From a virus: 37,683 nt of DNA. This document shows positions 1 to 37,683 of the stretch, piece by piece (position 1 is the stretch's first letter; the number at the start of each line of letters is the position of its first letter). The position numbers and the translations under genes were made by a program. The DNA is taken from the IMG/VR virus record IMGVR_UViG_3300029717_000023, positions 1-37,683 of that record. The stretch is one strand, 5' to 3'. The notes beneath the pieces were generated by a model, which was not told the origin of the DNA, made no database searches, and saw only the letters and a list, made by a program, of their open reading frames with translations.

Positions 1-99
1 CTTATGGACTGGCCCCTTTCGGCTGTATCTAATATCGCATAATCGGCAGCGAATGCTGCCGGAAAGGAGAACAGCTTGAGCGTACCAACGTGGAAGAGG
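1..99. repeat. Terminal overlap, identical to 37585-37683 (circularisation/assembly overlap)
   Basis: Base-for-base identity read directly. It contains the VR1 3' end, stop codon, hairpin, and the avd SD and start. Confidence 0.9.
44..61 (+). promoter_or_regulatory. Duplicate copy (assembly overlap) of the VR1-proximal hairpin
   Basis: cggcagc-gaat-gctgccg: 7-bp stem with a GAAT loop. Same sequence as 37628-37645. Confidence 0.7.
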
Positions 100-516
100 T
101 CCACTTCATCTGCAGACTATATATACTACTGCTTTGAGCTGAACTGTAAGCTTGGCGAGATAGTAATGAAGAAAGAAACGAAATATAGAAAAACATACGG
201 CGACCATCTGATCAAGACAGGGCTTGAAGCTCTGTCACATCTGCAGGTCGCCAATTCTATATTCATTGGCAAGACCGCAACGGAAGCTGAATTCAGACAA
301 AGACGTGTACATCTCAAAGAAGCCGTAGGACTTCTTGAACATCTGTCAACGACAGCGTACATATTCATCGAGCTTGTCCGTAACAATGGACAGGAGTCAA
401 ACCAGAAGCTCAACAATCAGGAGGAATATATAGGCTCCAAGGTTGAGGCGATAATCAGGAAGACCAAAGGCATAATAAAGAACGATGCGCAAATTTATAA
501 AAAGTATATTAAGTAA
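76..516 (+). CDS. avd: DGR accessory variability determinant (Avd)-like small helical protein
   Basis: 146-aa ORF between the VR1 hairpin and TR. TTG start 4 nt after SD AAAGGAGA (64-71); alternative ATG at 166. Basic and predicted helical, with size and position typical of Avd. No enzymatic motifs. Confidence 0.6.
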   Translation: MSVPTWKRSTSSADYIYYCFELNCKLGEIVMKKETKYRKTYGDHLIKTGLEALSHLQVANSIFIGKTATEAEFRQRRVHLKEAVGLLEHLSTTAYIFIELVRNNGQESNQKLNNQEEYIGSKVEAIIRKTKGIIKNDAQIYKKYIK

Positions 517-542: not shown

Positions 543-675
543 AGCGCGGCCAACTGGTGGGAGCGTTCTCCTAATTCGAGCAATTCGACTAATTTCTGCA
601 AAGTCAACTCGAACGGCAACGCCAACAACAACAACGCGTCGAACACTAATGGACTGGCCCCTTTCGGATATATCT
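543..675 (+). repeat. DGR template repeat (TR)
   Basis: Aligns without gaps to VR1 (133 nt) and VR2 (128 nt). All 19 and all 22 mismatches are at TR adenines. By my count the TR has 38 adenines and 13 AAY codons in the VR reading frame. Confidence 0.95.
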
Positions 676-713: not shown

Positions 714-1925
714 ATGAAAAATGAAAAGATACAGGAGAACAATAACCGGGGCGAAAGCCGAAATTGCGCCGTAGTCTGCACCTCAGAGGAGACTGCAGCG
801 GCGGGAGCACCGCATACGGCGCCAACAATTAATGACGTTATATCATTTGACAAAATTCTGCAGGCGGGCATAGCCTGCTGCAGGGGGACGCGATGGAAAG
901 CATCAACGCAGATGTTTGAAGTAAACGTGCTGCGATGGGCAGCAAGCCTGTCCCGGGACCTGCAGGAAGAAGAATATGAAAGCAGAGGATTTAACACCTT
1001 TGAGATCAGCGAGCGTGGTAAACGCAGAAAGATCCAGTCGGTGCACATATCAGAGCGAACGGTTCAAAAGTCGCTTTGCAACAATGCCTTGAAGCCGGCA
1101 CTCACACCTAAGATGATATATGACAACTCGGCTACGCTGAAAGGCAAAGGCACAGAGTTCGCTATAGACAGACTGAAAGAGCACCTGCACAGGCATTATA
1201 GAAAACACGGACTAAAGGGTGGAATACTCATTATCGATTTTAAAGGATACTTCCCAAGCATTCCTCACGACAAGCTGATAAAAATGCTGTCTGCAGAAAT
1301 TGAGGACGAAAAAGTAATGAAGCTTGCAGCATACTTTGTAAACTGCTTTGACGGCGACAGAGGCCTTGGCCTTGGCAGTGAGATATCTCAGATATCAGCC
1401 ATATTTTACCCAACGTATAAGCTGGATAAATACATTAAGGAACAGCTGCATATTAAGGGGTATGGACGATATAACGATGACAGCTATCTCATTCATGAAG
1501 ATATTGAACATCTGAAACATTGTCTGCAGGAGATAGATAATCGCTGTCAGGAACTTGGAATAACGCTCAATGCAAAAAGAGTGAAGCTTATAAAGTTCAA
1601 GGACAGACAGGTGTTCACATTCCTTAAGAAAAGATTTCTACTGACTGTTTCAGGCAAGGTCGTGGTCAGGCTGTCGAAGAAGAATATCGTGAACCAGCGG
1701 AGAAGACTGAGAAAGTACAGGAAGCTCCTTGACGCAGGAGAAATAAAGGAAGAATCCATAATCCAGTCGTATGACTGCTGGCGAAGCTACGCGGAGAAAT
1801 ACAATTCCGAAATGACAGCGAGAAATATGGACAGGACATTCAAAGAATTATTCGGAAAAGAAATGCACAGGGAAGTAATGCGAAGAATGGAAAAGAGAAA
1901 AAGGAGGCGGAAAAATGACGGATGA
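714..1925 (+). CDS. DGR-type reverse transcriptase
   Basis: RT motifs: IIDFKGYFPSI, LGLGSEISQ (DGR-like [LI]GxxxSQ), YGRYNDDSYLI (YxDD). The track ORF starts at 531, but its first 61 codons are the TR read in frame. ATG 714 is the first plausible start; its SD is weak, so the start is uncertain. Confidence 0.9.
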   Translation: MKNEKIQENNNRGESRNCAVVCTSEETAAAGAPHTAPTINDVISFDKILQAGIACCRGTRWKASTQMFEVNVLRWAASLSRDLQEEEYESRGFNTFEISERGKRRKIQSVHISERTVQKSLCNNALKPALTPKMIYDNSATLKGKGTEFAIDRLKEHLHRHYRKHGLKGGILIIDFKGYFPSIPHDKLIKMLSAEIEDEKVMKLAAYFVNCFDGDRGLGLGSEISQISAIFYPTYKLDKYIKEQLHIKGYGRYNDDSYLIHEDIEHLKHCLQEIDNRCQELGITLNAKRVKLIKFKDRQVFTFLKKRFLLTVSGKVVVRLSKKNIVNQRRRLRKYRKLLDAGEIKEESIIQSYDCWRSYAEKYNSEMTARNMDRTFKELFGKEMHREVMRRMEKRKRRRKNDG

Positions 1926-2212: not shown

Positions 2213-2331
2213 CCACGAGCTGCTTGATCTTGTCGACAATCTGTACCTGCTGATCCAGGAGCACATATCTGTAGAGCAGGCAATGGATATTGAGGCAAGA
2301 ATTGAAGAAATTAAAGCGAAAGGAGCAGAAA

Positions 2332-3123: not shown

Positions 3124-3380
3124 AAAAAGAATTTTCACAGCTACTCGTCGCCTTGGTCGTAGCATTTGCTTGCCTATGTGTCATCGCATATTATGTAGCC
3201 GTATTTGCGGGCAAGGAATGCGACAGCGCCATAGGCGTAACGGCACTTGGAACGATTGTAGGAGGTGTGCTGTCGTATCTGCTCTATCAGTTAGGCCTGA
3301 AGAACAGTCGTAATAGGTATGGAATAGACGCAGACGGACAGCCGTATAAAACAAAAATTGAGGAGGAAGAAGATGATTGA
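3120..3380 (+). CDS. Holin-like membrane protein (two TM segments, acidic C-terminus)
   Basis: 86 aa. Hydrophobic stretches LLVALVVAFACLCVIAYYVAVF and ALGTIVGGVLSYLLY. ATGA overlap with the endolysin stop. Confidence 0.5.
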   Translation: MKKEFSQLLVALVVAFACLCVIAYYVAVFAGKECDSAIGVTALGTIVGGVLSYLLYQLGLKNSRNRYGIDADGQPYKTKIEEEEDD

Positions 3381-3693
3381 CTGGACAGAAGTAATAATCG
3401 GGATCTGCAGTATAGTAATCACGGGAATAATGATCCCGCTGATTAATGCGAAAAGGAAGGAAGTAAAAAACAGGCTGACAGACGACCAGCTCGAAGCAGT
3501 AGAATACTGGACAGAAGTCGGAGTGCGCTGGGCTAAGCAGTGGCTCTGGTCAGAATCAGGCCAGAAGAAGAAAGCCGAGGTTACAGACTTCCTCAATAAG
3601 AAGCTAGCAGAGCTGAACCTCAATATGACAGCAGAGGACATAGACAAAATAATAGAAGCTATATATGAGAGAGTGAAAGCAGAGAGTGAATAA
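3373..3693 (+). CDS. Holin, LL-H-family-like
   Basis: ATG after SD GGAGGA. N-terminal TM segment (VIIGICSIVITGIMIPLI) followed by a helical soluble tail, as in LL-H holins. Confidence 0.55.
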   Translation: MIDWTEVIIGICSIVITGIMIPLINAKRKEVKNRLTDDQLEAVEYWTEVGVRWAKQWLWSESGQKKKAEVTDFLNKKLAELNLNMTAEDIDKIIEAIYERVKAESE

Positions 3694-3995
3694 TGGAAAC
3701 AGTAAGCACAATATTAAGCTTCATCGTTCTTCTGGGAGCTGCAGCGGCGGTAATCTTCAAGCTGATTAAGCCAACAGTGGACATCAGAAAAATGGTGAAA
3801 GACCACGATGACAGATTGAAACGGATTGAGCGCCACGAAAAGAATGACCTGCAGGCGCTGGACCACATACAGTACCTGCAGAAAAAGCAGATGCAGATGA
3901 TGGTTGCGCTGCTCAATCATTCAATCGACGGAAACGGAATCGCCCAGATGAAAGCAACAAGAGATGAGATAATAGATCTCATAGCAGAAGAATAG
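3693..3995 (+). CDS. Membrane-anchored coiled-coil protein, lysis-associated by position
   Basis: N-terminal TM segment (ILSFIVLLGAAAAVIF) plus a helical region. Start overlaps the upstream stop (TAATG). Confidence 0.4.
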   Translation: METVSTILSFIVLLGAAAAVIFKLIKPTVDIRKMVKDHDDRLKRIERHEKNDLQALDHIQYLQKKQMQMMVALLNHSIDGNGIAQMKATRDEIIDLIAEE

Positions 3996-4021
3996 AATAA
4001 CAAGATATATATTGACACATA

Positions 4022-4057
4022 GCCCTCTGATTGCGATGCATGACGAGGGCCTTTTTT
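4022..4057 (+). terminator. Rho-independent terminator closing the lysis operon
   Basis: gccctc (4022-4027) pairs with gagggc (4045-4050), followed by cTTTTTT. Confidence 0.6.
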
Positions 4058-4118
4058 AATATTATGCGATAAACACATAATATTGAGATGTGATATAGAA
4101 ATATACTAGATATAGTTG

Positions 4119-4147
4119 TTGACATGTATGATAAAATATAAATAAAA
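4119..4147 (+). promoter_or_regulatory. Candidate promoter of the AT-rich island
   Basis: TTGACA at 4119-4124 with A/T-rich -10-like hexamers about 16-18 nt downstream. The exact -10 is ambiguous. Confidence 0.3.
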
Positions 4148-4174
4148 TAGTTATTTAAATGAATGAGGTATATT

Positions 4175-4594
4175 ATGGCAAAAATTAAAAACTTTATATA
4201 TTGCTTGAATGCAACTTCGGACGATAAAATAGCCAATGCAATGGGTATTCTCTTAACAATTAACCCCGATTATATGCCGGGAAATTTTTCGTTTAGTATA
4301 TTTTTCACAATCGTTGACATTAAAGAAGACTTGCATAATCTTAAGATTGAATTTTTAGACCCAGATGGAGAAGAAGTAATTCCTGCGTTAAAGGGAGAGA
4401 TTCCATATAAGAAGAAAGAAGAAGATAATGAGCTCGATAGCGATTATTCAGGAGTGAATATATCTGCTAATCTGCAAAACGTGAATTTAAAGAAAAACGG
4501 AAAGTATAAAACCGTAATCACATTTGATGGAGCGAAACTAAATGAGTACGAAATACTTGTAAAAGGGAAGAAAATTTTGAAAGAAGATGAATAA
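4175..4594 (+). CDS. Hypothetical protein A of the accessory island (139 aa, probably all-beta)
   Basis: ATG 6 nt after GAGG. AT-rich codon usage. No TM segment and no motif I recognise. Confidence 0.6.
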   Translation: MAKIKNFIYCLNATSDDKIANAMGILLTINPDYMPGNFSFSIFFTIVDIKEDLHNLKIEFLDPDGEEVIPALKGEIPYKKKEEDNELDSDYSGVNISANLQNVNLKKNGKYKTVITFDGAKLNEYEILVKGKKILKEDE

Positions 4595-4596: not shown

Positions 4597-5166
4597 ATGA
4601 ATAAACAATTATGCATACATAGAAGTCCTCATATGAATTTTTCTTACGACTTATCTAAGTCTGTTGACAATCCTAGCACTAATGTAAATAAAATTAATTA
4701 TGGAAATGGAATAAATAGCGCAATGCCTAAATATAATAATTATAGCATAGGTAAAAATGATATGTTTGTTAGGTGGCGTTATGATGAATCAAAAGGAGTT
4801 AGCTGCATGGAGATGAATGCTAGGAGCAGCAATTTAAAAAAACTCTTTGAGATAAGCAAATTAGAAGAAGACTGGAATGGTTATAGTGCAAAGAAAATTT
4901 CTAATAGGATTATAGAACTTGCGAAGAGCATACTAGATATAGTTGAGCAACAACCAGAGATTTACCCGACAGGAAGAGGCACTATTAATATGCAGTATGA
5001 GTTGAAAGATAAAAGCTATCTTGAGTTTGAGCTTTTTGATAATAGGATTGAATGCTTAAAAGTGCCCAAAAGAGAGTATTCAAAAGCTGTTACAGAGTCT
5101 ATAAATGAAGAAAATATTGTTCGTGTGAGTAAAATTTTAAAGGAATTTTGTGCTAATAATGATTGA
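4597..5166 (+). CDS. Hypothetical protein B of the accessory island (189 aa, or 119 aa from ATG 4807)
   Basis: ORF starts 2 nt after the stop of A. The N-terminal 70 aa are N-rich and low-complexity. In-frame ATG 4807 has a strong SD AAAGGAG (4792-4798). The C-terminal half contains LEEDWNGYSAKKI.... Confidence 0.55.
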   Translation: MNKQLCIHRSPHMNFSYDLSKSVDNPSTNVNKINYGNGINSAMPKYNNYSIGKNDMFVRWRYDESKGVSCMEMNARSSNLKKLFEISKLEEDWNGYSAKKISNRIIELAKSILDIVEQQPEIYPTGRGTINMQYELKDKSYLEFELFDNRIECLKVPKREYSKAVTESINEENIVRVSKILKEFCANND

Positions 5167-5551
5167 GATAAAAGAAAAATTATACAGAGCGGTGAAAAGG
5201 TCTAAGCCTGATACTCTTAACGATAAAAATAAAGCCACGTCGGCGCTATTTAAAGGCGAAAAAGGAATTTCAGTTGATAGAGATATGGGCAGAGCAGAAA
5301 CGGAAGTGTTAGATGCACTAAAAAAACATTTTAAAGAAAGATGTAAGGCAATAGTGACTTTTCCTGCGCGTGAGTGTAAAGAGAATGGCATACTTATTGT
5401 ACCGACGCCTTCTCAAGGGAATGTATTTCACGCAGAATTGTATGATGGAGAAGAACGCAACGAACTGACAAGTGTACAGTGTTTGATTTTAGCAGACATA
5501 AGTACAACCGTTTACTATAACAATGAAATTCAGTGGACTAATGCTAGTTAG
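5150..5551 (+). CDS. Hypothetical protein C of the accessory island (133 aa)
   Basis: GTG start 5 nt after AGGA (5141-5144), or ATG 5159. Overlaps the 3' end of B by 17 nt, which suggests translational coupling. No recognised motif. Confidence 0.55.
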   Translation: MLIMIEIKEKLYRAVKRSKPDTLNDKNKATSALFKGEKGISVDRDMGRAETEVLDALKKHFKERCKAIVTFPARECKENGILIVPTPSQGNVFHAELYDGEERNELTSVQCLILADISTTVYYNNEIQWTNAS

Positions 5552-5862: not shown

Positions 5863-6960
5863 TCATATGACTGAAAGGTCGTTTGAGGTCGTTTGAGGTG
5901 TTGTACCTAGTGTTGTACCTGTTGTACCGTTTATTAGTTTTGCCGCCTCTAAAATCGTAGAATTATCTGCGTGAGTGTAAATATTTGCGGTCAAAGATAT
6001 ATCGCTGTGCCCCATCAGGTATTGCGCTGTTCTGATGTCGATTCCCTTCTTCTGCAGGTCAGTGCAATAAGTATGCCGCAGGTCATACGGCACAAAATCT
6101 TCCGCCAGGGGGAATGGAGGTATAAGCTTGTTCCTATAAACTCTACAACCCATAGAAATATTCATTTCTCTGTACAGGCTTTTCGTTATTCTCCTGTATG
6201 AAGAGGCATCGTGCTTTTTACCGACATTGTTCGGAGAGATGTAATCAAATTTAGGCGTGTTTTTAATCCTTTGGCACAATATATCGGGGATTGGTACAAA
6301 ACGGTTTGCGTTGTCCGTTTTAGTTCCTCTGATATGCAACACAGGCTGACCTTCAAGCATCTTTACATCCATACCTTTGGCCTCTCTTGCCTCAGACGGT
6401 CTGCAACCACAGTACAGCATCAGAAGAAATAGCACAAATCTGTCGTCATTCTCACATACTTTAAGCAGATGATATCTCTCGCTGTCTGTGATTGATCTTC
6501 GGCAGATCTTAGTTCCGGCTGGCTTGGTTATTTTTTCGGCAGGATTTTTCAAGATCAACTCATTGCTAACAGCTGTCCTAAATATGAAATTGAGCGTTTG
6601 ATGAACTTCGTTAATCTGTCTTTTAGAATTACCTGCCTGCAGATTGAGCACATTCTGGCAGTGAAGAGGCTTCACCTGCTTAAGTTGCATATCTCCGATG
6701 TGCTCCAGTATGCAATGCTTCATACGCTGCACATACTTCTTCTGCGTTTCGTCTGTCTGGTTTGTCTTGTATACCTCTACAGCTCTAAGTGCCCAGTCTT
6801 TGACGAGCATAGTGTTGGCAATCGTAACTTTTCCTTCTTCGAGATCGCGAAGCTTGTTCGCGATTTTTCTTTCAACCAATTTTTCGTTTTCTGCGGTTAC
6901 ATAGTATCTCTTACCGTCAAAAGTAAAAGACCTTGTGATAGAACCTTTTTTTCTTGCCAT
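5863..6960 (-). CDS. int: Tyrosine recombinase / phage integrase
   Basis: C-terminal catalytic signature: RPSEA..., YDLRHTYCTDL, GHSDISLTANIYTH (R..H-x-x-R..Y). ATG 6960 lies 7 nt after AGGAGG; the track ORF runs upstream to 7029. Confidence 0.9.
   Translation of the reverse strand: MARKKGSITRSFTFDGKRYYVTAENEKLVERKIANKLRDLEEGKVTIANTMLVKDWALRAVEVYKTNQTDETQKKYVQRMKHCILEHIGDMQLKQVKPLHCQNVLNLQAGNSKRQINEVHQTLNFIFRTAVSNELILKNPAEKITKPAGTKICRRSITDSERYHLLKVCENDDRFVLFLLMLYCGCRPSEAREAKGMDVKMLEGQPVLHIRGTKTDNANRFVPIPDILCQRIKNTPKFDYISPNNVGKKHDASSYRRITKSLYREMNISMGCRVYRNKLIPPFPLAEDFVPYDLRHTYCTDLQKKGIDIRTAQYLMGHSDISLTANIYTHADNSTILEAAKLINGTTGTTLGTTPQTTSNDLSVI
5899..5928 (+). repeat. Three copies of TGTTGTACC, candidate integrase arm-type sites (right arm)
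   Basis: Copies at 5899-5907, 5911-5919 and 5920-5928. A tandem ggtcgtttga x2 lies at 5877-5896. They overlap the 3' end of the integrase ORF and encode its low-complexity GTTGTTLGTT tail. Confidence 0.4.
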
Positions 6961-7114
6961 TGTATCGCCTCCTATAAATCCGGGCATAAAAATGCCTATG
7001 ATTGACAATAGGGCTACAGCATGATACAATCTAACTGTGTTCGAGTGTTAGAGCCTATCGGCTGTAACCCGTCAGACGTTTCTGCGCCAACAGGAGCGTC
7101 TGTTTTTTATTTAA

Positions 7115-16973: not shown

Positions 16974-17147
16974 ATGAAGATGAACAAGAAAGAAGCAATG
17001 GACAAGCTGTACGAGCATAAAAATATGCTTACGTATCAGCAGTACAGGACATTCAGAGGTCAGATATGCTCAGGAGATATAGTAGGATTTCACAAGGGTT
17101 TAGATAGGATATTGAAAAGAAAAGGAGAAGTAAAATGTCAGAGATAA
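16974..17147 (+). CDS. Small hypothetical protein (57 aa)
   Basis: ATG 7 nt after AGGAGA. Overlaps the DGR target 2 start by 13 nt. Below the track cut-off. Confidence 0.3.
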   Translation: MKMNKKEAMDKLYEHKNMLTYQQYRTFRGQICSGDIVGFHKGLDRILKRKGEVKCQR

Positions 17148-17962
17148 AGATAGGAACAATCAATATTATTTTTAACGGCAATATGAATAGCGCGCAGGAA
17201 ATGATACCGGCAGCGGAGCGTTGTGAGAACAGCCCAGCTAAAGCGCCGGTGAAAATTGTAACATGGGCAGACGGAACAGACGAAGAAATAGTTGCAATGG
17301 TTAAGGCAGCAGACAAGGGACTGATCGATTTGAAAGATTACTGGAATATTGGAGATGCAAGAAAGGTTATGCTGTCTGAGACAGAAGGCTGCGAATGGTA
17401 TACGTCCCACAGCAGACAGGAGACTGAATTCGTATTGATGAACGCTGGCGGGAAGATGTTGCTAACACCTACCGAGTCAGGCAGGACAACCTGTAGCTTT
17501 GTGGTTGGGTTGAAAGATTGTCTCAAAGAAGAGGACAAAATCAACAGAGAAGATACAAATGAAGGCGGCTGGGAAAGTTCAGATATAAGGGAATGGTGCA
17601 ATGACTGGTTTGCACAGTCAATTCCCCAGACCCTGCAGCCGATATTCAAAAACTTTGTAAACAGTACATATGCAGACGGGAAGATTGTTGAAACGACAGA
17701 CCTGTTTGCGCTTCCGGCAGAGGTTGAGGTGTACGGAAGCACCAAATACTCTGCACAGGGAGAAGGCACACAATTTGAGCTTTATAAAAATCCGCTTAAC
17801 AGAATTAAGTGTATAGGCTCCGGAGGATATCAGGCCCACTGGTGGGAGCGTTCTCCTTGTTCGAGCAGTTCGGCTGGTTTCTGCATAGTCGACTCGGACG
17901 GCGACGCCGACGTCAGCAGCGCGTCGGTCACTTTTGGACTGGCCCCTTTCGGCTGTATCTAA
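17135..17962 (+). CDS. DGR target protein 2 (C-type-lectin-like variable domain only, 275 aa)
   Basis: Paralogous to residues ~185-421 of target 1 (KIVTWA.GTD.EI..MV.AADKGLI.L.DYW..GD...). C-terminus carries VR2 (HWWERSP...GLAPFGCI*). SD AAGGAG. Confidence 0.85.
   Translation: MSEIKIGTINIIFNGNMNSAQEMIPAAERCENSPAKAPVKIVTWADGTDEEIVAMVKAADKGLIDLKDYWNIGDARKVMLSETEGCEWYTSHSRQETEFVLMNAGGKMLLTPTESGRTTCSFVVGLKDCLKEEDKINREDTNEGGWESSDIREWCNDWFAQSIPQTLQPIFKNFVNSTYADGKIVETTDLFALPAEVEVYGSTKYSAQGEGTQFELYKNPLNRIKCIGSGGYQAHWWERSPCSSSSAGFCIVDSDGDADVSSASVTFGLAPFGCI
17833..17960 (+). repeat. DGR variable repeat 2 (VR2)
   Basis: 128 nt align gap-free to TR 548-675. All 22 mismatches are at TR adenines. Confidence 0.95.
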
Positions 17963-17973: not shown

Positions 17974-17991
17974 CAGCAGCGAATGCTGCAG
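17974..17991 (+). promoter_or_regulatory. VR2-proximal hairpin (GAAT loop), DGR target-recognition element candidate
   Basis: gcagc-gaat-gctgc core, plus an outer c-g pair across an a/a mismatch. Begins 13 nt after VR2, the same offset as at VR1. Confidence 0.6.
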
Positions 17992-18005: not shown

Positions 18006-18266
18006 ATGGAAAAATTAAAAGTAGGATCATCAACGAAACCCAACCTGGCTGCAGGAGCGATTGCAGGAATCATAAGAAGAGATAAAAAAATAGAGATTCA
18101 GGCTATAGGAGCGGGAGCAGTTAATCAGTCAATTAAGGCGGTAGCTATAGCAAGAGGCTATGTAGCTGCCGGTGGACTGGATATAATCTGCAGACCTGCA
18201 TTTATAGATATCGACACGGGCGATAAGGAAACCACAGCTATAAGAATAATAGTCGAGGCAATTTGA
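18006..18266 (+). CDS. spoVS: SpoVS-like protein (stage V sporulation protein S homologue)
   Basis: MEKLKVGSSTKPNLAAGAIAGIIR....EIQAIGAGAVNQSIKAVAIARGYVA..G.D.IC.PAF.DI......TAIR.IVE closely follows the SpoVS sequence as I recall it. Confidence 0.8.
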   Translation: MEKLKVGSSTKPNLAAGAIAGIIRRDKKIEIQAIGAGAVNQSIKAVAIARGYVAAGGLDIICRPAFIDIDTGDKETTAIRIIVEAI

Positions 18267-29321: not shown

Positions 29322-30978
29322 AACCGCATATGTGCTACTGAAACTCAACCCCAAGGATTTCACAAAAGGATTAAAAACAGCAGAAAAAGGCACGAAACAA
29401 TTTGACAAAAATATAGCCCTGACCAAAAAACGAATAGGCACGCTGACAAATGCAGCGATGAAAGACCTGACCACATTCGGCAAACGAACCGCCAAGGTTC
29501 TCGGCGGTGCAGCTGCAGCCTTTGCAGGCGTGGCCATTGCAAAGGGCTGGTCGAGAATGACTCAGATTGATGAAGCAAAAGTCAAACTTGAAGCGATCGG
29601 CAACAGCTCCAAGAACGTTGCTAAAATAATGGATAACGCAATGGAATCTGTTAAGGGCACAGCCTATGGCATGAATGATGCCGCAACAACAGCTGCAAGT
29701 GCAGTCGCTGCCGGCATCAAGCCTGGGCAGGATCTGACCAAATATCTATCTACCGCAGCAGACGCGGCAGCTGTCGCAGGCGTAGACCTGCAGGAAATGG
29801 GCGCTATATTCAACAAAGTTGCCACAAAGAATAAAGCGACAAACGAAGTACTGACCCAGCTTGCAGAACGAGGGATACCCGTATATCAATATATAGCCGA
29901 CAGCATAGGCAAGACCACCGAAGAAGTCACCAACATGGCATCAAAGGGGCAGATAGATCTAAAGACATTCCAGACGGCTGTCGAAAGCCATATAGGAGGC
30001 GCCGCCAAGAGCATAGGAAGCAAGACGATTACAGGAGCCATCAAGAACATAGGAGCATCAATATCCCGAATTGGTGCGAACTTCCTCGGCTCTGCAGATG
30101 ACGGTAACAGCTTTGCTGCAAGGGTACTCCCGGCTCTCAACAGAATCACAGAGAACCTGGGCAAGGTAGAAGTCAAGGCCAAGGAGTGGGGCGCTAAATT
30201 CGGAACCACAGTAGGCAAGGCTCTGGACTGGATCACCACCCACATAGGTACGATCAGAAAAGCAATAAAGATAGCCATACCTATAGCAGCGGGCTTTTAT
30301 GCCACCATAATGGCATATGCAGCCATAACTAAGATAGTTGGAGTATTTAGAGCACTAAAATCAATTATCGATATGGTTAAGATTTCACAGATCGGATTGA
30401 ATGCGGTATTTATGGCAAACCCTATCTTTTGGATAGCCATGGCAATCGGAGTTCTTGTGGCTGCATTCATAGCTCTGTGGCAGCGGTCAGAAAAATTCAG
30501 AGCAATCTGTAAAAAAGTATGGGCCGTAATGAAAAAAGTCGGCGGATATATATGGAATTACCTTGTCGGGTATTTTAAGGTGCTGAAAACCGTAATCGAT
30601 GCAGTGCTCTGGCCAATCAAACAGGTAGCCAAAGGCTTGAAAAAGATATTTGGCTATAACGGCAAAACTGCCAACGTGACGGTCAAAGAAACTAGCACAG
30701 GAGGCAGCGGAGAGACCAAGCCGACAAAGAAACACAATGCCCTTGGCACATCATTCTTCTCAGGTGGTACAACAACAATCAACGAATTTGGCAAGGAGCA
30801 GATCAACCTGCCGTCTGGGACTGAGATTATACCGGCGGACAAGGTGGGGAAGAACAGCGGAACAAACATCATAGTGAACTGCACAATTCAGGGTAACGTC
30901 ATAGGCAACCAGGAATACATGGAACAGACAGGAAACTATATTGCTGCAAGAATAAAGTCAGCTCTTGCGAATTCATAG
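29314..30978 (+). CDS. Tail tape measure protein
   Basis: 554 aa. Ala/Gly-rich helical core with hydrophobic segments. Pattern ...GMNDAATTAASAVAAGIKPGQDL.... Confidence 0.9.
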   Translation: MAKTAYVLLKLNPKDFTKGLKTAEKGTKQFDKNIALTKKRIGTLTNAAMKDLTTFGKRTAKVLGGAAAAFAGVAIAKGWSRMTQIDEAKVKLEAIGNSSKNVAKIMDNAMESVKGTAYGMNDAATTAASAVAAGIKPGQDLTKYLSTAADAAAVAGVDLQEMGAIFNKVATKNKATNEVLTQLAERGIPVYQYIADSIGKTTEEVTNMASKGQIDLKTFQTAVESHIGGAAKSIGSKTITGAIKNIGASISRIGANFLGSADDGNSFAARVLPALNRITENLGKVEVKAKEWGAKFGTTVGKALDWITTHIGTIRKAIKIAIPIAAGFYATIMAYAAITKIVGVFRALKSIIDMVKISQIGLNAVFMANPIFWIAMAIGVLVAAFIALWQRSEKFRAICKKVWAVMKKVGGYIWNYLVGYFKVLKTVIDAVLWPIKQVAKGLKKIFGYNGKTANVTVKETSTGGSGETKPTKKHNALGTSFFSGGTTTINEFGKEQINLPSGTEIIPADKVGKNSGTNIIVNCTIQGNVIGNQEYMEQTGNYIAARIKSALANS

Positions 30979-30987
30979 GAGGCAGAT

Positions 30988-31404
30988 ATGAACATAACAG
31001 CTAGCATAGACAACAACAAAACAATAGTTAATATGCCATTCGTACCTGCAAGCGGGCTGACAATCGATTACGGATCATCCACAAACGAAAACGTGGACAG
31101 CGTTAAATACGGACAGATAAAAAAACTGGGGAAAGAACCGCTTGCAACAGTGAGCATCGACAGCTTCTTCCCAGCTTCCAAAACAGGTTATGACAGAGGA
31201 AGCTTTGAAGACCCATATAAGTATGTCCAGTTCTTCAGAAATGCCAGAAAAAAAAGAAAACCTGTAAGAATCGTAATAACGGACAACAACGACAGAGAAA
31301 TATTCAATAGACTCATGGCGATCGAGACTTTTTTGTGGACGATAGACAAAGTCGGAGGCATTGACTACAGCCTGAGCCTTGAGCAGTATAGAAAGGTGAA
31401 GTGA
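30988..31404 (+). CDS. XkdP-like tail/baseplate protein (no LysM seen)
   Basis: Position after the tape measure gene. Contains PVRIVITDNN. Confidence 0.45.
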   Translation: MNITASIDNNKTIVNMPFVPASGLTIDYGSSTNENVDSVKYGQIKKLGKEPLATVSIDSFFPASKTGYDRGSFEDPYKYVQFFRNARKKRKPVRIVITDNNDREIFNRLMAIETFLWTIDKVGGIDYSLSLEQYRKVK

Positions 31405-32372
31405 TGAAATTCAAAATCGTACGTGTGCACAACGGTGCAAAAGAAACGATAACCAAAAAAGTCGGAAGCCTGTCATGGACAGACAGCATGGACTCGCTGG
31501 GAGTTGAGTTTTCGTTCACCTTTCCGTACTCATACTGGGACTCGCAATTCAAGAATAAGCTGCAGCTTGGAGACCTTATTATCATCAAGTCAGGGAAAAA
31601 GGAGATCACAAGAGGAATTATAACTCAGACACCGATTAATGGAGATGATTATAGAGGTTACGATTATGCTTTTTATCTGAACAAGTCAGAAGCAATCTTC
31701 CAGTGCAAGAAGATAGGAGCGTCAAAAGCAATAACCCAGCTGCTTGCAAGGTATGGCGTGCCGATTGGTGAAATGCCAAAGCTCACAACGGCAATCAATA
31801 AGCTCTACAAGGACGTGGCAGTGTCTGAGATCATAAAGTCTATCCTGTCAGAGGTGCATGACGAAACGGGCAAGTCCTACAGAATGGAAATGACAAGAGG
31901 CAAGTTCTGCATCAGGCGTTCCGGTTATATCAAGATCAAACCAAAATATGTTGATGAGCTGGGAGAAAAGGTGTCCTGCACCAAAGCATGCTCAGTTACA
32001 GGCACAAGGTCAATTGAGGACATGCGCAACCAGATTATAATTGCAGGAACGGGCGACAAAAAAGCGCAGATTAAGGCAACGGTCAAAGACTCCAAGAGTA
32101 TTAAGAAATACGGACTGCTGTCGCAGGTTGAAACTGTAGAAAAAACAAATCAGGCAAAAGCGAAACAGAAGGGCAAAAACCTTTTAAAGAAGCTCAACAA
32201 AAAGACGGTATCATTCACCTGCGAGATGCCGGGGAGCACAATAATAAGGGCTGGAAGAAAAATATATTTCAACAGACCCGAAGCAGGAATAAAAGGCTGG
32301 TACAAGGTGAAGTCAGCTACGCACAACGTAACAGAAGGAAAATATACAGTAAGTCTGGAAATGGAGGCATAG
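31404..32372 (+). CDS. XkdQ-like baseplate hub protein
   Basis: Size and synteny. TGATG overlap. Confidence 0.5.
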   Translation: MKFKIVRVHNGAKETITKKVGSLSWTDSMDSLGVEFSFTFPYSYWDSQFKNKLQLGDLIIIKSGKKEITRGIITQTPINGDDYRGYDYAFYLNKSEAIFQCKKIGASKAITQLLARYGVPIGEMPKLTTAINKLYKDVAVSEIIKSILSEVHDETGKSYRMEMTRGKFCIRRSGYIKIKPKYVDELGEKVSCTKACSVTGTRSIEDMRNQIIIAGTGDKKAQIKATVKDSKSIKKYGLLSQVETVEKTNQAKAKQKGKNLLKKLNKKTVSFTCEMPGSTIIRAGRKIYFNRPEAGIKGWYKVKSATHNVTEGKYTVSLEMEA

Positions 32373-32375
32373 GAT

Positions 32376-32654
32376 ATGTGGAACGAGGAAATTGCGAAAG
32401 CCATAAAAGAAAATGCCCGTTCGGCCAGAATAAAAGCAGTAGGCGAGGCATCCGGATCTATCGGAGTGATAGAACAGGTCTCGCCTTTAATCATATCTGC
32501 GGAGGCAGGCGCTGTAATGTATGAAGACGACCTTATAATCAAATCTGAAACTTTTGCGAGGTATACAAAACCGAAACTGGCCAAAGGAAAAGAAGTAATC
32601 ATAGTACCGATAGACAGCGCAACAACAATCGCTGTAATAGATCTAGTGGGGTGA
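32376..32654 (+). CDS. DUF2577/XkdR-like baseplate protein
   Basis: GVIEQVSPLIISAEAGAVMYEDDLII pattern. Confidence 0.55.
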   Translation: MWNEEIAKAIKENARSARIKAVGEASGSIGVIEQVSPLIISAEAGAVMYEDDLIIKSETFARYTKPKLAKGKEVIIVPIDSATTIAVIDLVG

Positions 32655-32658
32655 TAGT

Positions 32659-33111
32659 ATGGATGATATGTTCCCGGAAATCGATATGGAAATTGAAGAA
32701 GAGGAAGATGTTGAAGAGGAAGAAACCCTGCAGTCTACGACTATAGGGAGAACTCCTCTTTTCAATTTTTCTACCGGAAAATATGAAATCAAAGACGGAA
32801 AAATAATTGAATGTACACAGGAAGAAGCCGTAAGGCAATGGGTAGGATTCCTCGTCAAAACCTTTGTGGGAAAGTACAGAGTTTACGATAACACAGACTT
32901 CGGCACTTATATAGAAAACTATATCGGAGAAAAAAACAGAGGTTTCGTACTGTCGGAGATTAAAAGAGAGCTCGAAGAAAAGGCAGAAGACAATAGAGCA
33001 ATCGAAGATATAACCGATATCGAAGGCAAGACGAAAGGCGACAAAATGACAATCAGCCTGACCATAGTAATGACAGACAAAACAGAAGTGGAGGTGGAAG
33101 TAGATGTCTAG
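32659..33111 (+). CDS. DUF2634/XkdS-like (gp25-like) baseplate wedge protein
   Basis: Acidic N-terminus, then FNFSTGKYEI...QWVGFLVKTFVGKYRVY. Confidence 0.55.
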   Translation: MDDMFPEIDMEIEEEEDVEEEETLQSTTIGRTPLFNFSTGKYEIKDGKIIECTQEEAVRQWVGFLVKTFVGKYRVYDNTDFGTYIENYIGEKNRGFVLSEIKRELEEKAEDNRAIEDITDIEGKTKGDKMTISLTIVMTDKTEVEVEVDV

Positions 33112-34141
33112 AGCAGACGACATCAGGAATAGAATATCTGATGAATACGAAAAAACACCGGGTTATCTGCTGTGGGACGTGTCGGAAGCTGTAGGGCAGG
33201 AAATGGACCTGCAGGACATAACCGCAGCAGAAACAAAAAGCATGTTCTACGTTGACAACCTCACCGGAGATTACCTGACGAGCTTCGTCAAGGAGCGAAA
33301 GGGGATTGAACGGCGCGCTGCCACATATGCGATAGGCAGTCTGACAATCACAGGCAACGGCACCATAACCACCGGGGATATATTCGAAACGGCAGGCGGC
33401 GTGCAATTTTCCGCAACAGAAACAAAAACAATAGCAGAAGAGGGAACTGTAAGTATAAAGGCTATGATAGCCGGCAACAGCGGAGTGGTTGGAGCCGGAA
33501 GCATAGTGCAGATGCCGGTAACAATTGAAGGCATAGTATCCTGCACCAATGAGGCTGCTACATATAACGGCTACGATGAAGAGGATGATGCTTCTTTAAG
33601 AGAAAGATACTATACTGCCCTTCAGACACCTGCCAACGGCGCGAACAAAGCCTCGTACGAAAAGTGGGCACTGGAGGTATCCGGGGTGGGAGCTGCAAAA
33701 GTATATCCCCTAGGACATGGTGACAATACAGTTGACGTAGTTATAATTGACCAGGATATGCAGCCTGCCAACAGCACACTCGTTAATACTGTGCAGGATT
33801 ATATAGACCCTGACAGCGCGGGGAAAGGGGAAGGTGAGGCAATGATAGGAGCTCATTGCTATGTATCATCGGCAACCGGAACCGCGATAAATATAACAGG
33901 AAAACTCAGTTATACCGGCAGCAAGGATACGGTGGTAGAAAATGTGAAGACAAGCATAAAAGTATATCTTGCGACGATTGCATTCACAGGGAAGAATGTA
34001 TCATATGCGCAGATAGCCAATGCAATAATAGAGTCGGAAGGAGTTCTCGATGTGGAAAATTTTAAAATAAACAACGGAACAGCCAACATATCAATCGCAG
34101 AAAGACATGTAGCAGTTCTGGGAACGGTGGTGTTCACATGA
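33104..34141 (+). CDS. Baseplate J-like protein (XkdT-like)
   Basis: 345 aa. Contains ERKGIERRAATYAIGSLTITGNGTI..GDIFETAGGVQF. Confidence 0.8.
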   Translation: MSRADDIRNRISDEYEKTPGYLLWDVSEAVGQEMDLQDITAAETKSMFYVDNLTGDYLTSFVKERKGIERRAATYAIGSLTITGNGTITTGDIFETAGGVQFSATETKTIAEEGTVSIKAMIAGNSGVVGAGSIVQMPVTIEGIVSCTNEAATYNGYDEEDDASLRERYYTALQTPANGANKASYEKWALEVSGVGAAKVYPLGHGDNTVDVVIIDQDMQPANSTLVNTVQDYIDPDSAGKGEGEAMIGAHCYVSSATGTAINITGKLSYTGSKDTVVENVKTSIKVYLATIAFTGKNVSYAQIANAIIESEGVLDVENFKINNGTANISIAERHVAVLGTVVFT

Positions 34142-34668
34142 AAGCTAATGAAATTGCAGTGAGAATTAATAAACTGAACTCCGACGATGACATGGTCAAG
34201 AACCTTATTAGCGCAATAGGTGGCTGCATGGACCTGACAGACGCAAAAAACGAGCAGATTATAAAAGACATGTTTATATCGACCTGTTCGGCAGAAAGGC
34301 TTGGAGAATATGAAAAAGAAGCAGGGGTATCGCCGGCGGCCTCGCAGTCTGAAGATGACAGGCGATCTGCGGTAATAGCGAGGTGGAGAAGTGAGGGCAA
34401 GTGCGACATAGAACTGCTGAAAATAACGGCCGATTCGTGGAAATACGGCAAAACAAACATCGACTTTGTGAGCAATAAGTTGCAGATATCATTCAACGAC
34501 AAAGGTATACCTACAGATCTGGATGGATTGAAAGCAGCTATTGAAGAGGTTAAACCTGCACATATAGATACAGTATATATTTTCGTATACACAACATGGG
34601 ACGAGGTCAAAACGAAGACATGGAATGAAGTCAAAACAATGACGTGGGATGAATTGAAAGTGAGGTGA
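34138..34668 (+). CDS. DUF2313/XkdU-like tail protein
   Basis: AERLGEYEKEAGV......RRSAVIARW pattern. C-terminal TW(D/N)E(V/L)K repeats. Confidence 0.6.
   Translation: MKANEIAVRINKLNSDDDMVKNLISAIGGCMDLTDAKNEQIIKDMFISTCSAERLGEYEKEAGVSPAASQSEDDRRSAVIARWRSEGKCDIELLKITADSWKYGKTNIDFVSNKLQISFNDKGIPTDLDGLKAAIEEVKPAHIDTVYIFVYTTWDEVKTKTWNEVKTMTWDELKVR
34594..34665 (+). repeat. 3 x 24-nt in-frame tandem repeat
   Basis: Units at 34594-34617, 34618-34641 and 34642-34665, encoding TWDEVKTK / TWNEVKTM / TWDELKVR. Confidence 0.8.
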
Positions 34669-34675
34669 TGATTGC

Positions 34676-35206
34676 ATGGAAACGACAGATAAGTACGGAT
34701 TAAGGCTTCCGGCGGGCAATGAGAACGCAGACGTGGAAGATCTGAATTATAACGCTCAAAAAATAGACGCACTGCTAAGGGAAGCAATAATTAAAGACGC
34801 AGATGCTTCTAACACGATAGCACAGACTGACTATTTTGGGTTGGTGAAATCGGATAACAGCTTCAAGAAAGTAGCCTTTTCCAAAATCGTAGAGAAAGCA
34901 AAAGAAACGATGGGCGGGGTAAACACTAAGACTGTTAGGGCGTCAAACATTGCAGTGCCATTGTCAGCATGGAGTCAGGAATCAAGCCCAACTGTTGCAG
35001 ATTATCCATGGAAGGCAGAGATAACTGTGAGTGGAATTGATTCCACATATAAACCGAATAATCTAGTGTCATTAACCGAGGGATTTATGGATTTACTGTA
35101 CGAATTCGCGAACACATCAACGAACAAATTAATACTCTACGCATCGGAAAAACCTGCAACAGCGGTAACAATTGACAGCGTAGATTTCACAAAGGTGGTG
35201 ACATAA
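34676..35206 (+). CDS. Tail fibre protein (N-terminal fibre-anchor pattern)
   Basis: METTDKYGLRLPAGNENADVEDLNYNAQKID resembles the N-termini of Xkd-type fibre proteins. Confidence 0.45.
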   Translation: METTDKYGLRLPAGNENADVEDLNYNAQKIDALLREAIIKDADASNTIAQTDYFGLVKSDNSFKKVAFSKIVEKAKETMGGVNTKTVRASNIAVPLSAWSQESSPTVADYPWKAEITVSGIDSTYKPNNLVSLTEGFMDLLYEFANTSTNKLILYASEKPATAVTIDSVDFTKVVT

Positions 35207-36060
35207 TGCTGGGAAGAGTAAAAAGCGCTAAACCTGAAGAAGAAATAACGGTAACGGCCGGGACAGAAACAAAAGAAGTACTGCCCTCATCGGGGAAGAC
35301 AATCAAGAAGGCGACAGTAAATCCTACCCCAAGCCAGGCGAAGACCATTATCCCATCCGAAGTACAGCAGGAAGTGGCGCCAGACGATGGAAGCTTATTA
35401 AGCAAGGTGATTGTGACAGGGGATCCCAACCTCACGGAAGAAAACATTAAAAAAGGCGTTAGTATCTTCGGCAGGGAGGGGACTTACTCAGGACCACCAG
35501 CCATGTTTTATTTAGACGATTACGAAAACCCCACAGAAATTACCTTCACCGGTGAGTCTATACCGAACAGAATGTTTTACATAAACAACCTTATGAGAAC
35601 AATAGACTCATTTCGGACTCATAAGAAGATTAAGACAATTGGAGAGGAAGCGTTCAGTTCGGTGTACTATCCCATGTACACATACCCGCTAAAAAATGTT
35701 TTCCCTGACGTTTTGGAGGCCGACAACATAAAAGGTGGAGCCTTTTATTACTTTTTCTACAACTACGCACCAGCAAAAATAAAAATACATAAGACAATTG
35801 CGGGGTGCCCATTCAGTAGGTGCTTTGGGTATTTTTTTAACGGCAGCAGCAAGCTGTGGCTTTCGGCACAAATCAAAACAATAAGCCAGGGCATTGTGGA
35901 TCCGCAGGATTCATCGTGCGCATTGACTATTTACTGTGAAGCAGCAGAAAAGCCAAGTGGGTGGGCTAGTAATTGGAACCAGTGGAATTACCCTAGCAGT
36001 ACAATAAACACGGTAACGACGATGTGGGGCGTAGATGAAGAGCAATTCAATAATCTGTAG
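35206..36060 (+). CDS. Fibre-module protein with a BspA-like leucine-rich-repeat character
   Basis: Repeated I(K/G)xxAF-type segments (IKTIGEEAFSS, IKGGAFYY, IKTISQGI) and a C-terminal ...IYCEA..KPSGWASNWN. Confidence 0.35.
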   Translation: MLGRVKSAKPEEEITVTAGTETKEVLPSSGKTIKKATVNPTPSQAKTIIPSEVQQEVAPDDGSLLSKVIVTGDPNLTEENIKKGVSIFGREGTYSGPPAMFYLDDYENPTEITFTGESIPNRMFYINNLMRTIDSFRTHKKIKTIGEEAFSSVYYPMYTYPLKNVFPDVLEADNIKGGAFYYFFYNYAPAKIKIHKTIAGCPFSRCFGYFFNGSSKLWLSAQIKTISQGIVDPQDSSCALTIYCEAAEKPSGWASNWNQWNYPSSTINTVTTMWGVDEEQFNNL

Positions 36061-36070
36061 GAGGTAAGAA

Positions 36071-36274
36071 GTGAAAAAAGAATACACAAAACATACGATT
36101 GAGAAAATGGATGAAAATATGCAGCCGACAGGCGAAAAGGAAGAAAAAATTTTTGTTAGCCTTATAGCTGATGAAGGGAAGAGAATAAGAGAAAAAGGCA
36201 CAGGCATACTGGGCACAAGAGTTGATATCGGAGATGGAAGCTCTGAAGATGATTTTGAAGAAGTGGCGGTTTAA
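36071..36274 (+). CDS. Small acidic hypothetical protein
   Basis: GTG start after TAGGAGGTAAGAA. 67 aa. Confidence 0.35.
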   Translation: MKKEYTKHTIEKMDENMQPTGEKEEKIFVSLIADEGKRIREKGTGILGTRVDIGDGSSEDDFEEVAV

Positions 36275-36289
36275 TGATAGGAGAATAAA

Positions 36290-36349
36290 ATGAAAATACG
36301 CAAAAATCTAGGGGGGGGGCGGCCCTTAATCGCTCTCCGGAGGTGCTAG
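36290..36349 (+). CDS. 19-codon upstream ORF containing the G9 tract
   Basis: ATG 5-6 nt after TAGGAGA. Ends (tag) 1 nt before the target 1 ATG. Translation is speculative. Confidence 0.2.
   Translation: MKIRKNLGGGRPLIALRRC
36311..36319 (+). repeat. Homopolymeric G9 tract
   Basis: ctaGGGGGGGGGcggccc, read directly. Lies 32 nt upstream of the DGR target 1 start. Confidence 0.9.
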
Positions 36350-36350
36350 A

Positions 36351-37616
36351 ATGTGGGGACAAATAAAAAAGAGAAGCGGCGGCATCAAGTCAATTCCAAC
36401 AGGTATCTATGTCGCCACAGCACCGAACAAGACATCATATAAGGCAGGGGAGACGCTTGCAATAGCTGGAATGGTGGTTAAAGTCAAGTTCTCAGATAAC
36501 ACTGAAAAAGACATAACATCTGAGTGTACGCTTTCACCTGCCGCAGGAACAGTCATATATGAGAATACAACCAAAATAGATATAAGCTGGGAGTGGAATG
36601 AGCTGGGAGCTGCAATTGCATATTCAGCTGAACAGCCTGTAACAGTTCAGAGAGTGTTAAGCTCAATCGCCGTTACAACGCAACCAACCAAAACTACATA
36701 TTATAAAAATGAAACTCTTAACCTTGCCGGAATGGTGGTTAAGGGAACGTTTAATTCGGGGACGACTGCAGTTGTTACAGGCTGGACAACCAGTCCTGCA
36801 AACGGAGTAGCGCTGTCTATACTCGGCACTCAAACAGTGACAGTATCATACACCGAGAATGGAGTGACAAAGACAGCGACATTCACAGTACAGGTAAATG
36901 TGAAGATTGTAACCTGGGCTGCCGGCACGGATGCAGAGATCGCCTCAATGGTAGAGGCTGCGGACAAAGGATTGATTACCCTGTCAGACTATTGGACAGT
37001 GGGAGATGAACGGTCTGTGAGCCTGTCTGCTATGGCAGCCACAGGAGTAGGCGAAAGCCACGCGGCACAGACCGCGAAGTTCGTGCTAATGAACGCCGGC
37101 GGAAAGGACCTCGTGACAGCGACTGAGTCAGGCAGAACAATCTGCAGCTTCGTGGTGGGATTGAAAGACTGCCTGAATGAAGCGGGATACATGAATTCGT
37201 CAAATACCAACGCAAATGGTTGGGACGGCTGCGCAAGAAGAACGTGGTGTAACGGCATTTTCAGAAACGCCATTCCGTCAGCGCTGAGAGGAATATTCAA
37301 GCAGCATAAGAATAAGGCTTCTGCAGGAAGCGGTAGCTCAGCAATAAATACATCTAACGACTATTTCGCACTGCCGGCAGAAATTGAAGTGTTTGGAACC
37401 AGGAGTTACTCAGCCTCGGGCGAAGGTTCGCAGTTCAAATACTATGAGACAGCATCGAACAGAATTAAGAATGTTAATGGTAGCGCGGCCAACTGGTGGG
37501 AGCGTTCTCCTTATTCGAGCAGTTCGACTAATTTCTGCGGAGTCTTCTCGAACGGCTTCGCCGACCTCTACTCCGCGTCGCACGCTTATGGACTGGCCCC
37601 TTTCGGCTGTATCTAA
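36351..37616 (+). CDS. DGR target protein 1: two Ig-like repeats plus a C-type-lectin-like variable domain
   Basis: Two ~90-aa repeats (..T.Y..GETL..AGMVVK..F.....) at about 36390-36900. Then a domain paralogous to target 2, ending in VR1 (NWWERSP...GLAPFGCI*). Last gene of the fibre module. Confidence 0.9.
   Translation: MWGQIKKRSGGIKSIPTGIYVATAPNKTSYKAGETLAIAGMVVKVKFSDNTEKDITSECTLSPAAGTVIYENTTKIDISWEWNELGAAIAYSAEQPVTVQRVLSSIAVTTQPTKTTYYKNETLNLAGMVVKGTFNSGTTAVVTGWTTSPANGVALSILGTQTVTVSYTENGVTKTATFTVQVNVKIVTWAAGTDAEIASMVEAADKGLITLSDYWTVGDERSVSLSAMAATGVGESHAAQTAKFVLMNAGGKDLVTATESGRTICSFVVGLKDCLNEAGYMNSSNTNANGWDGCARRTWCNGIFRNAIPSALRGIFKQHKNKASAGSGSSAINTSNDYFALPAEIEVFGTRSYSASGEGSQFKYYETASNRIKNVNGSAANWWERSPYSSSSTNFCGVFSNGFADLYSASHAYGLAPFGCI
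37482..37614 (+). repeat. DGR variable repeat 1 (VR1)
   Basis: 133 nt align gap-free to TR 543-675. All 19 mismatches are at TR adenines. Confidence 0.95.
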
Positions 37617-37627
37617 TATCGCATAAT

Positions 37628-37645
37628 CGGCAGCGAATGCTGCCG
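37628..37645 (+). promoter_or_regulatory. VR1-proximal hairpin (GAAT loop), DGR target-recognition element candidate
   Basis: cggcagc-gaat-gctgccg: perfect 7-bp stem. Begins 13 nt after VR1. Absent downstream of TR. Confidence 0.65.
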
Positions 37646-37683
37646 GAAAGGAGAACAGCTTGAGCGTACCAACGTGGAAGAGG

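Follow-up and report, generated by a model that had tools for sequence, protein, structure and literature searches.

A two-target diversity-generating retroelement with DUF6273 variable proteins in an uncultured temperate phage of the human gut

The retroelement cassette and its repeats

The DNA analyzed here, referred to as the window, comprises positions 1-37,683 of the IMG/VR record IMGVR_UViG_3300029717_000023, i.e. the whole stretch of 37,683 nucleotides (nt) from an uncultured human-gut phage. Its annotation distinguished a complete diversity-generating retroelement (DGR), in which a large target gene ending in a variable repeat (VR1) is followed by an accessory gene in the Avd position, a template repeat (TR) and a gene encoding a reverse transcriptase (RT). 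A smaller target gene with a variable repeat of its own (VR2) lies approximately 17.2 kb from the TR. The features are summarized in Table 1. The contig ends share a direct repeat of 99 bp; the genome unit is therefore 37,584 bp, either circular or terminally redundant. The contig junction is straddled by VR1, the hairpin downstream of it and the beginning of the accessory gene, and the last 30 nt of VR1 recur at positions 1-30 by way of the terminal repeat.

Table 1. Coordinates of the retroelement and of other predicted features of the window
Feature	Position	Strand	Remarks
Large DGR target gene (421 aa)	36351..37616	+	Two Ig-like domains and a C-terminal globular DUF6273 domain with VR1 at its end; follows baseplate/tail genes
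VR1	37482..37614	+	Last part of the large target gene, coding for residues 378-421; gap-free alignment with TR
Truly diversified VR1 tract	37491..37592	+	Corresponds to TR 552-653
IMH-like 3′ boundary element	37593..37620	+	CTGGCCCCTTTCGG CTGTATCTAATATC; common to VR1 and VR2, identical in 12/12 VRs
Hairpin/cruciform candidate after VR1	37628..37645	+	CGGCAGC-GAAT-GCTGCCG; 13 nt past VR1; 7-bp stem, 4-nt loop
Terminal direct repeat (99 bp)	37585..37683 = 1..99		Contig ends identical
Accessory gene in Avd position (146 aa)	76..516	+	TTG start, pI 9.4; between target gene and TR
TR	543..675	+	38 adenines, 13 AAY codons in the VR frame; common to the window and contigs L001, L002 and L021
DGR reverse transcriptase (403 aa)	714..1925	+	Pfam RVT_1; PHROG 1423, E 3e-72
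Small DGR target gene (275 aa)	17135..17962	+	Disordered N-terminus and DUF6273; VR2 at its end
VR2	17833..17960	+	Matches TR 548-675
Hairpin after VR2	17976..17989	+	GCAGC-GAAT-GCTGC; DNA fold -5.8 kcal/mol, z = -2.66
SpoVS-like protein	18006-18266		Pfam E 2e-32; directly after the VR2 target
Endolysin	2290-3123		
Integrase, tyrosine-type	5863-7029	-	PHROG 1, E 1e-58
Baseplate wedge	33104-34141		
Tail protein	34138-34668		

Realignment of the TR with VR1 yielded a gap-free match of 133 nt at an offset of 36939, with exactly 19 mismatches. All of these fall at adenines of the TR (positions 573, 583, 600, 601, 606, 607, 618, 619, 624, 627, 628, 630, 633, 634, 642, 645, 648, 668 and 670), and the chance of such an outcome, given 38 adenines in a TR of 133 nt, is C(38,19)/C(133,19) = 7.4e-13. 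The same alignment and the same positions had been listed in a first-pass annotation of the locus, which is thus reproduced exactly. That annotation also placed the resulting changes between the protein segments NWWERSP and GLAPFG. This applies to 17 of the 19, which lie between WWERSP and GLAPFG and are products of diversification, but not to TR 668 and 670, which lie after GLAPF and are fixed differences of the 3′ boundary carried as the same C and G by 12/12 VRs. The span given there for the repeat (37482-37645) also takes in the stop codon (37614-37616) and the hairpin downstream.

VR1 is in frame with the open reading frame (ORF) of the large target gene, which has 421 codons. In the VR frame the TR adenines are distributed over codon positions 1, 2 and 3 as 19/16/3, and approximately 1e19 VR1 peptides are possible when computed from the TR codons (15^13 x 20 x 4^4). 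Compared with the translated TR, VR1 of the window has 12 changed residues (388, 391, 397, 399, 403, 405-408 and 411-413). VR2 follows the same rule: 22/22 of its mismatches are at TR adenines, and no other base is affected from TR 548 onwards. When both strands of the window were scanned with tolerance for changes at adenines, no third VR was found.

The [ILV]GxxxSQ motif is a signature of DGR-type RTs. The RT of the window contains LGSEISQ at residue 220 and YNDD at residue 253, and its ORF is intact. In a BLASTP comparison with Brt of phage BPP-1 it showed 24% identity over 348 aligned columns (window residues 39-385, Brt 9-328; E 1e-16). Its best match in PDB was 8ub7, a 328-residue reverse transcriptase, which we take to be Brt since the length and the alignment range agree. 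Among NCBIfam models, only those of group II, retron and Drt3a type were matched, all below their cut-offs. The RT probably starts at the ATG at position 714, and the TR would be translatable as its N-terminal extension: an ATG at 531 opens an ORF of 464 amino acids (aa; 531-1925) that runs across the TR, where its frame is that of the VRs, and enters the RT without a change of frame.

The TTG start of the accessory gene is preceded by an AAGGAG ribosome-binding site. Its product belongs to a family of approximately 120 clusters at 50% identity with the conserved N-terminus MSVPxWxR, and the TTG start is supported by homologues whose alignment begins at residue 1. The protein has no match in Pfam or NCBIfam, and its family has none in a profile search of PDB. 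In position, size (146 aa) and isoelectric point (pI 9.4) it fits Avd proteins, whose published mean pI is 9.5 +/- 0.7 (PMC5758913). As Avd proteins are known to be basic and very poorly conserved (PMC5758913), a divergent Avd is the default reading of this gene.

Variation among related contigs and the 3′ boundary

Related human-gut contigs were recovered by pattern scans of viral and metagenome collections, and 12 distinct VRs (six VR1 and six VR2 versions) were compared. The 133-nt TR is identical in four contigs (the window, L001, L002 and L021), while their VRs are all different. Within TR 552-653 the 12 VRs differ from the TR by 202 substitutions at adenines (96 A>G, 84 A>T and 22 A>C); substitutions at non-adenine bases number three, all of them C>T. 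At least one of the 12 VRs varies at 33 of the 34 TR adenines in this interval, while A543, A672 and the 668/670 pair are constant among VRs.

Mean pairwise identity of VR1 between contigs is 82%, whereas the upstream 300 nt reach 94% and the downstream sequence 99%. Unique VR peptides were found in 17/17 close relatives of the VR1 target and in 26/26 of the VR2 target. In the VR1 target, all 14 columns with at least four states (381, 388, 391, 394, 397, 399, 401, 403, 405-408, 411 and 413) are coded by AAY or AAA in the TR, and the same applies to 15 of the 16 such columns of the VR2 target. These comparisons provide strong between-sample evidence that the element diversifies, and the DGR is probably active. 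Every related contig examined has a different VR1 peptide out of the approximately 1e19 that were calculated as possible.

The first mutable adenine, TR 552, is separated by only 4 nt (GGCC) from the point at which the TR/VR2 homology begins on its 5′ side, yet it is variable among VR2 copies. In contigs L001 and L002 (approximately 5120-5270 in each) VR1 is one codon longer than the TR of the same contig, which is identical to that of the window, and five diversified codons stand opposite (AAC)4 of the TR. Indels opposite AAC repeats have been mentioned for DGRs (PMC5758913). One member of the VR2-type cluster is frameshifted within its VR.

At the 3′ end of the repeats, CTGGCCCCTTTCGG is common to TR and VRs. 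Thereafter CTGTATCTAATATC follows in the VRs and ATATATCTGTTTTG in the TR, as seen in 12/12 VRs and in L004, a relative whose target protein is 73% identical. The TR thus carries the variant ...CGGATATATCTGTTTT, which differs from the VRs at 668, at 670 and from 676 onwards. In VR1 the change at TR 668 (GGA>GGC) affects the third base of codon G419 and is silent; TR 670 belongs to codon 420, where TAT>TGT replaces Y with C. Every one of the 12 distinct VR1 and VR2 sequences has C and G at these positions, and so does L004, in which GGATATAT of the TR is opposed to GGCTGTAT of the VR, the same contrast as in the window. Positions 668 and 670 are therefore fixed markers of the TR and VR ends and not products of adenine mutagenesis. 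Since the last varying TR adenine is A653, and 668, 670 and 672 are constant among VRs, the transferred, mutagenized tract ends inside GGACTGGCCCCTTTCGG.

An initiation of mutagenic homing (IMH) element where the VR ends and its variant IMH* at the end of the TR are the arrangement of BPP-1 and of most DGRs (PMC5758913). We name the elements of the window IMH-like and IMH*-like by analogy to BPP-1, and a corresponding function is suggested by this likeness. The 668/670 pair provides a clear natural illustration of the end point of mutagenesis.

Both VRs are followed by an inverted repeat. The VR1 hairpin has a predicted DNA fold of -9.6 kcal/mol (z = -2.85), and a hairpin of different sequence occupies the equivalent place in L004 (z = -2.35). 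No such hairpin follows the TR, where the DNA fold of the downstream sequence has z = 0.09. Hairpins described for DGRs have a GC-rich stem of 7-10 bp and a 4-nt GRNA loop, and are located 4-34 bp downstream of the VR (PMC3240598); such an inverted repeat is present in only about one third of DGRs (PMC5758913). In stem, loop length and spacing the VR1 hairpin fits the published form (PMC3240598), the last base of the loop excepted. It was also considered as an intrinsic terminator, and this was rejected because no T-run follows and the ribosome-binding site of the accessory gene begins within a few bases.

The adenine-specific pattern, the complete cassette and the variation across related contigs together support the proposal of the first-pass annotation that VR1 is a DGR variable repeat. 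We consider it very probable that VR1 is the recipient repeat of a canonical phage DGR (target - accessory - TR - RT) which diversifies a likely receptor-binding or adhesion protein. By analogy to BPP-1, RNA containing the TR would be copied by the RT, probably together with the small basic protein encoded by the accessory gene, and the template adenines would be copied unfaithfully. The resulting complementary DNA would replace VR1 and also VR2, located about 17 kb away. The IMH-like element would set the 3′ limit of this exchange, and the GC-rich hairpin may assist it.

Target proteins and alternative readings

The large target protein matches the Pfam families Big_3 (residues 110-182) and DUF6273 (PF19789; residues 280-417, 54.4 bits vs a gathering cut-off of 23.5), and all 97 aligned relatives match DUF6273. 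An AlphaFold2 (AF2) model built on 128 sequences, with a mean predicted local distance difference test (pLDDT) score of 94.1, contains beta-sandwich domains at residues 16-100 and 103-183 (pLDDT of approximately 95) and a mixed alpha/beta globular domain at approximately 185-421. The VR segment is modelled as a strand (382-387), a hairpin (394-398/404-408) and a terminal strand (418-420), with pLDDT of 96-98. When the full-length model was submitted to Foldseek, tandem immunoglobulin (Ig)-like domains dominated the matches, with LigA (8gyr, E 7e-8) at the top. The two N-terminal Ig-like repeats proposed in the first-pass annotation are thus confirmed by the modelled beta-sandwiches, the Big_3 match and the similarity to LigA.

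The small target protein is paralogous to the large one over residues 184-421 of the latter (approximately 56% identical) and also matches DUF6273 (47.3 bits; PF19789, cut-off 23.5). Its AF2 model has a mean pLDDT of 87.2, with residues 1-36 disordered. Having DUF6273 only, it was modelled so that the variable domain could be queried without dominance of Ig-like matches. The only confident Foldseek match of this model in PDB was 9qa6 (probability 1.00, E 2e-3, query-normalized template modelling score 0.43), the Thomasclavelia ramosa immunoglobulin A (IgA) peptidase, whose N-terminal domain is annotated as DUF6273 (PMC12402451). C-type lectins (CD23, MBP-A/C, SP-A, MGL, snaclec) and EgtB recurred among the PDB matches only at E 0.8-3.4 and probabilities of at most 0.13. 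Against BFVD, the model retrieved many phage DUF6273 proteins, some of them annotated as tail-collar fibre or receptor-binding proteins, with E down to 8e-15.

Alignment of the target-family profile with Mtd by hhalign yielded a probability of 0.1, and none of the 97 relatives matched Pfam families of C-lectin type (FGE-sulfatase, DUF1566, Lectin_C) even at E<=1. When the target-family profile was searched against PDB sequences, it matched N-terminal Ig-like regions only and nothing in the DUF6273 part, and neither target protein had a match in NCBIfam. The first-pass annotation expected a C-type-lectin-like target and named a fold unrelated to known DGR target folds as evidence against it. 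DUF6273 is a published DGR target fold, so that this objection does not apply. No significant Foldseek link to Mtd or canonical C-type lectins was obtained.

Residues of the VR-encoded segment fall into two groups. Variable columns have an entropy of 2.5-3.6 bits and accept Y, R, D, N, S and G. Interleaved with them are the near-invariant residues W382, W383, S386, P387, F395, C396, V398, G402, A409, P417, F418 and G419. The earlier suggestion that the variable residues lie between invariant scaffold residues agrees with this distribution. The alternation is what a fixed scaffold presenting exposed variable side chains would look like. Since the varying TR adenines sit at codon positions 1 and 2 (13 AAY codons), the variation affects approximately 14-18 residues, located in a beta-hairpin and the loops beside it, and the scaffold WW.RSP, FC.V, G.A and GLAPFG is fixed.

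The tail module ends with the gene for the VR1 target, after which come the DGR and then the lysis genes. The Ig-Ig-DUF6273 protein is most likely a distal tail receptor-binding or adhesion protein whose specificity can be redrawn.

Several points weigh against this interpretation as a whole. The variable domain has no significant Foldseek link to Mtd or to canonical C-type lectins, and Mtd is absent from the PDB matches. The accessory protein has no detectable similarity to bAvd (hhalign probability 0.1), with one of 53 family members matching Pfam bAvd at E 0.007. The hairpin loop is GAAT and not the GRNA consensus, and the stem of the VR2 hairpin has only five contiguous pairs. The receptor-binding role is argued from gene position and domain type. 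Finally, the evidence for diversification comes from comparison between samples, and in the source sample the element is only apparently active at present.

The diversified protein might instead be an adhesin for the gut environment, binding mucus, host cells or other microbes, or a protein used by the lysogen, as has been proposed for Ig-domain Hoc-like proteins and tentaclins. This possibility, which we hold to be somewhat unlikely, agrees with the two Ig-like domains of the large target and with published hypotheses for DUF6273/Ig DGR targets, which include the binding of intestinal or immune cells (PMC10743442). A preprint also reports target proteins of this type in the bacterial secretome (10.64898/2026.05.08.723808), and the gene for the small VR2 target is not part of the tail module but is flanked by the DNA methyltransferase and SpoVS-like genes. 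However, the VR1 target comes immediately after the genes for the baseplate wedge and tail proteins and ahead of the lysis genes, i.e. it occupies the usual slot of a tail fibre. In addition, the best BFVD structural matches are annotated as tail-collar fibre or receptor-binding proteins, and a 60%-identical homologue adjoins a Peptidase_S74 tail-fibre gene.

Two further departures from the preferred reading concern single components of the system, and each appears unlikely. One is that the accessory protein belongs to a family unrelated to bAvd; if true, this branch of gut-phage DGRs would use a different partner of the RT. The other, separate from it, is that the small VR2 target next to the SpoVS-like gene is not a virion protein.

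It is quite unlikely, in our view, that the locus is a fossil, in which the pattern records past diversification by a system that no longer runs in this lineage. Several Faecalibacterium prophages with two VRs (Lelie, Lagaffe_CP and CP11) lacked read-level VR variation in published work (PMC11792537), and identical VR1 proteins (P0001) occur on four contigs. For Lagaffe_CP and CP11, VR variation was visible in alignments of cognate genomes (PMC11792537). Against loss of activity stand the intact RT with its catalytic motifs, the TR that is conserved across four contigs while every VR differs, and the near absence of non-adenine divergence in the VRs (3/205 substitutions). As the flanks are 94% identical, the latter value indicates that rewriting of the VRs is more recent than the divergence of the flanks.

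That the TR and VRs are merely similar through an ordinary duplication that diverged, or through a recombination hotspot, with an adenine bias that is coincidental or driven by selection, is favoured solely by the existence of paralogous target genes and is extremely improbable. It is refuted by the TR/VR1 alignment (P of approximately 7e-13 for this pair alone) and the 202 vs 3 substitutions across the 12 VRs, and the DGR-type RT immediately beside the TR also speaks against it.

Related systems and genome setting

The system is a clear example of a DGR type already published for gut phages. Its layout of target, accessory gene in the avd position, TR and RT corresponds to architecture B1 (PMC5758913), and the gene order is that of the BPP-1 DGR (mtd - avd - TR - brt). 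As in BPP-1, a tail-module gene ends in the VR, which makes up its final ~130 nt, the TR is ~133 nt long and the repeats differ only at adenines. The IMH-like element begins with a G/C-rich part, and a GC-rich hairpin with a 4-nt loop is located downstream (PMC3240598, PMC5758913). The RTs are homologous, with xGxxxSQ and YxDD motifs in both. In contrast to BPP-1, the target of the window has no detectable sequence relation to Mtd and has the architecture Ig-Ig-DUF6273, the accessory protein has no detectable sequence similarity to bAvd, a second, non-adjacent VR is present, and the hairpin loop is GAAT in place of GAAA.

DGRs with two DUF6273 targets have been described in human-gut phages: nd4/nd12-like phages (PMC10743442), Toutatisvirus (10.1101/2024.10.15.618418) and the Faecalibacterium prophages Lelie and CP11 (PMC11792537). 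With these the window shares one TR for two VRs, DUF6273 in both targets with the VR at the C-terminal end of the domain, the combination of one large Ig-containing target with one small DUF6273-only target, and the human-gut origin. In Toutatisvirus the second target is 17,480 nt from the TR, a distance close to the ~17.2 kb of the window. The large target of the window differs in having N-terminal Ig-like domains, with the VR at its extreme C-terminus, and in its position upstream of the accessory gene; the corresponding gene of Toutatisvirus is located downstream of the RT.

Tentaclins, also DGR targets of gut phages, resemble the large target in combining a DUF6273/C-lectin-like domain with Ig-like domains and in having a hypermutated beta-hairpin with flanking loops (PMC10743442). 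They consist of an N-terminal C-lectin-like domain followed by Ig-like domains, of which the last is a conserved C-terminal anchoring domain (PMC10743442). In the window this order is reversed (Ig-like, 16-100; Ig-like, 103-183; DUF6273, ~185-421; VR at the C-terminus), and the large target is therefore not a tentaclin by that definition. The domain of 9qa6 (PMC12402451) differs in being part of a bacterial secreted protease without DGR diversification, and is 11% identical.

The window thus presents clean, complete and apparently live targeted hypervariation of proteins in an uncultured temperate human-gut phage, with one template serving two paralogous DUF6273 targets. With it, the published DUF6273 DGR targets gain a new lineage and a new domain order (Ig-Ig-DUF6273), and the knowledge of DGRs in general is left unchanged.

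Besides the genes listed in Table 1, the window encodes a terminase large subunit, a portal protein, a major head protein, a tail sheath protein, a tape-measure protein, a DNA methyltransferase and an HNH endonuclease. The presence of an integrase together with sheath and tail genes indicates a temperate phage with a contractile tail. The VR2 target gene is located upstream of the packaging genes. No Rfam family was found anywhere in the window.

Megablast of positions 30000-37584 against the phage collection gave no match, and tblastn against the same collection retrieved only distant relatives, the best of them 35% identical and Faecalibacterium phages 27% identical. A scan of species genomes found one relative with 50% identity, in an uncultured Clostridiales metagenome-assembled genome. 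The phage genome encodes a homologue of SpoVS (stage V sporulation protein S), which suggests a spore-forming host of the Clostridia.

A 60%-identical homologue of the large target was observed on contig L024 (positions 3001-4287; NCBI GCA_948280255.1), where it directly follows a Peptidase_S74 tail-fibre gene and is itself followed by lysis genes; no RT lies within 3 kb of it. Some relatives of the large target may thus lack an adjacent DGR, as reported for Toutatisvirus. Proteins of the VR2 type were also seen on contigs 108-375 kb long, presumably as parts of prophages within bacterial chromosomes.

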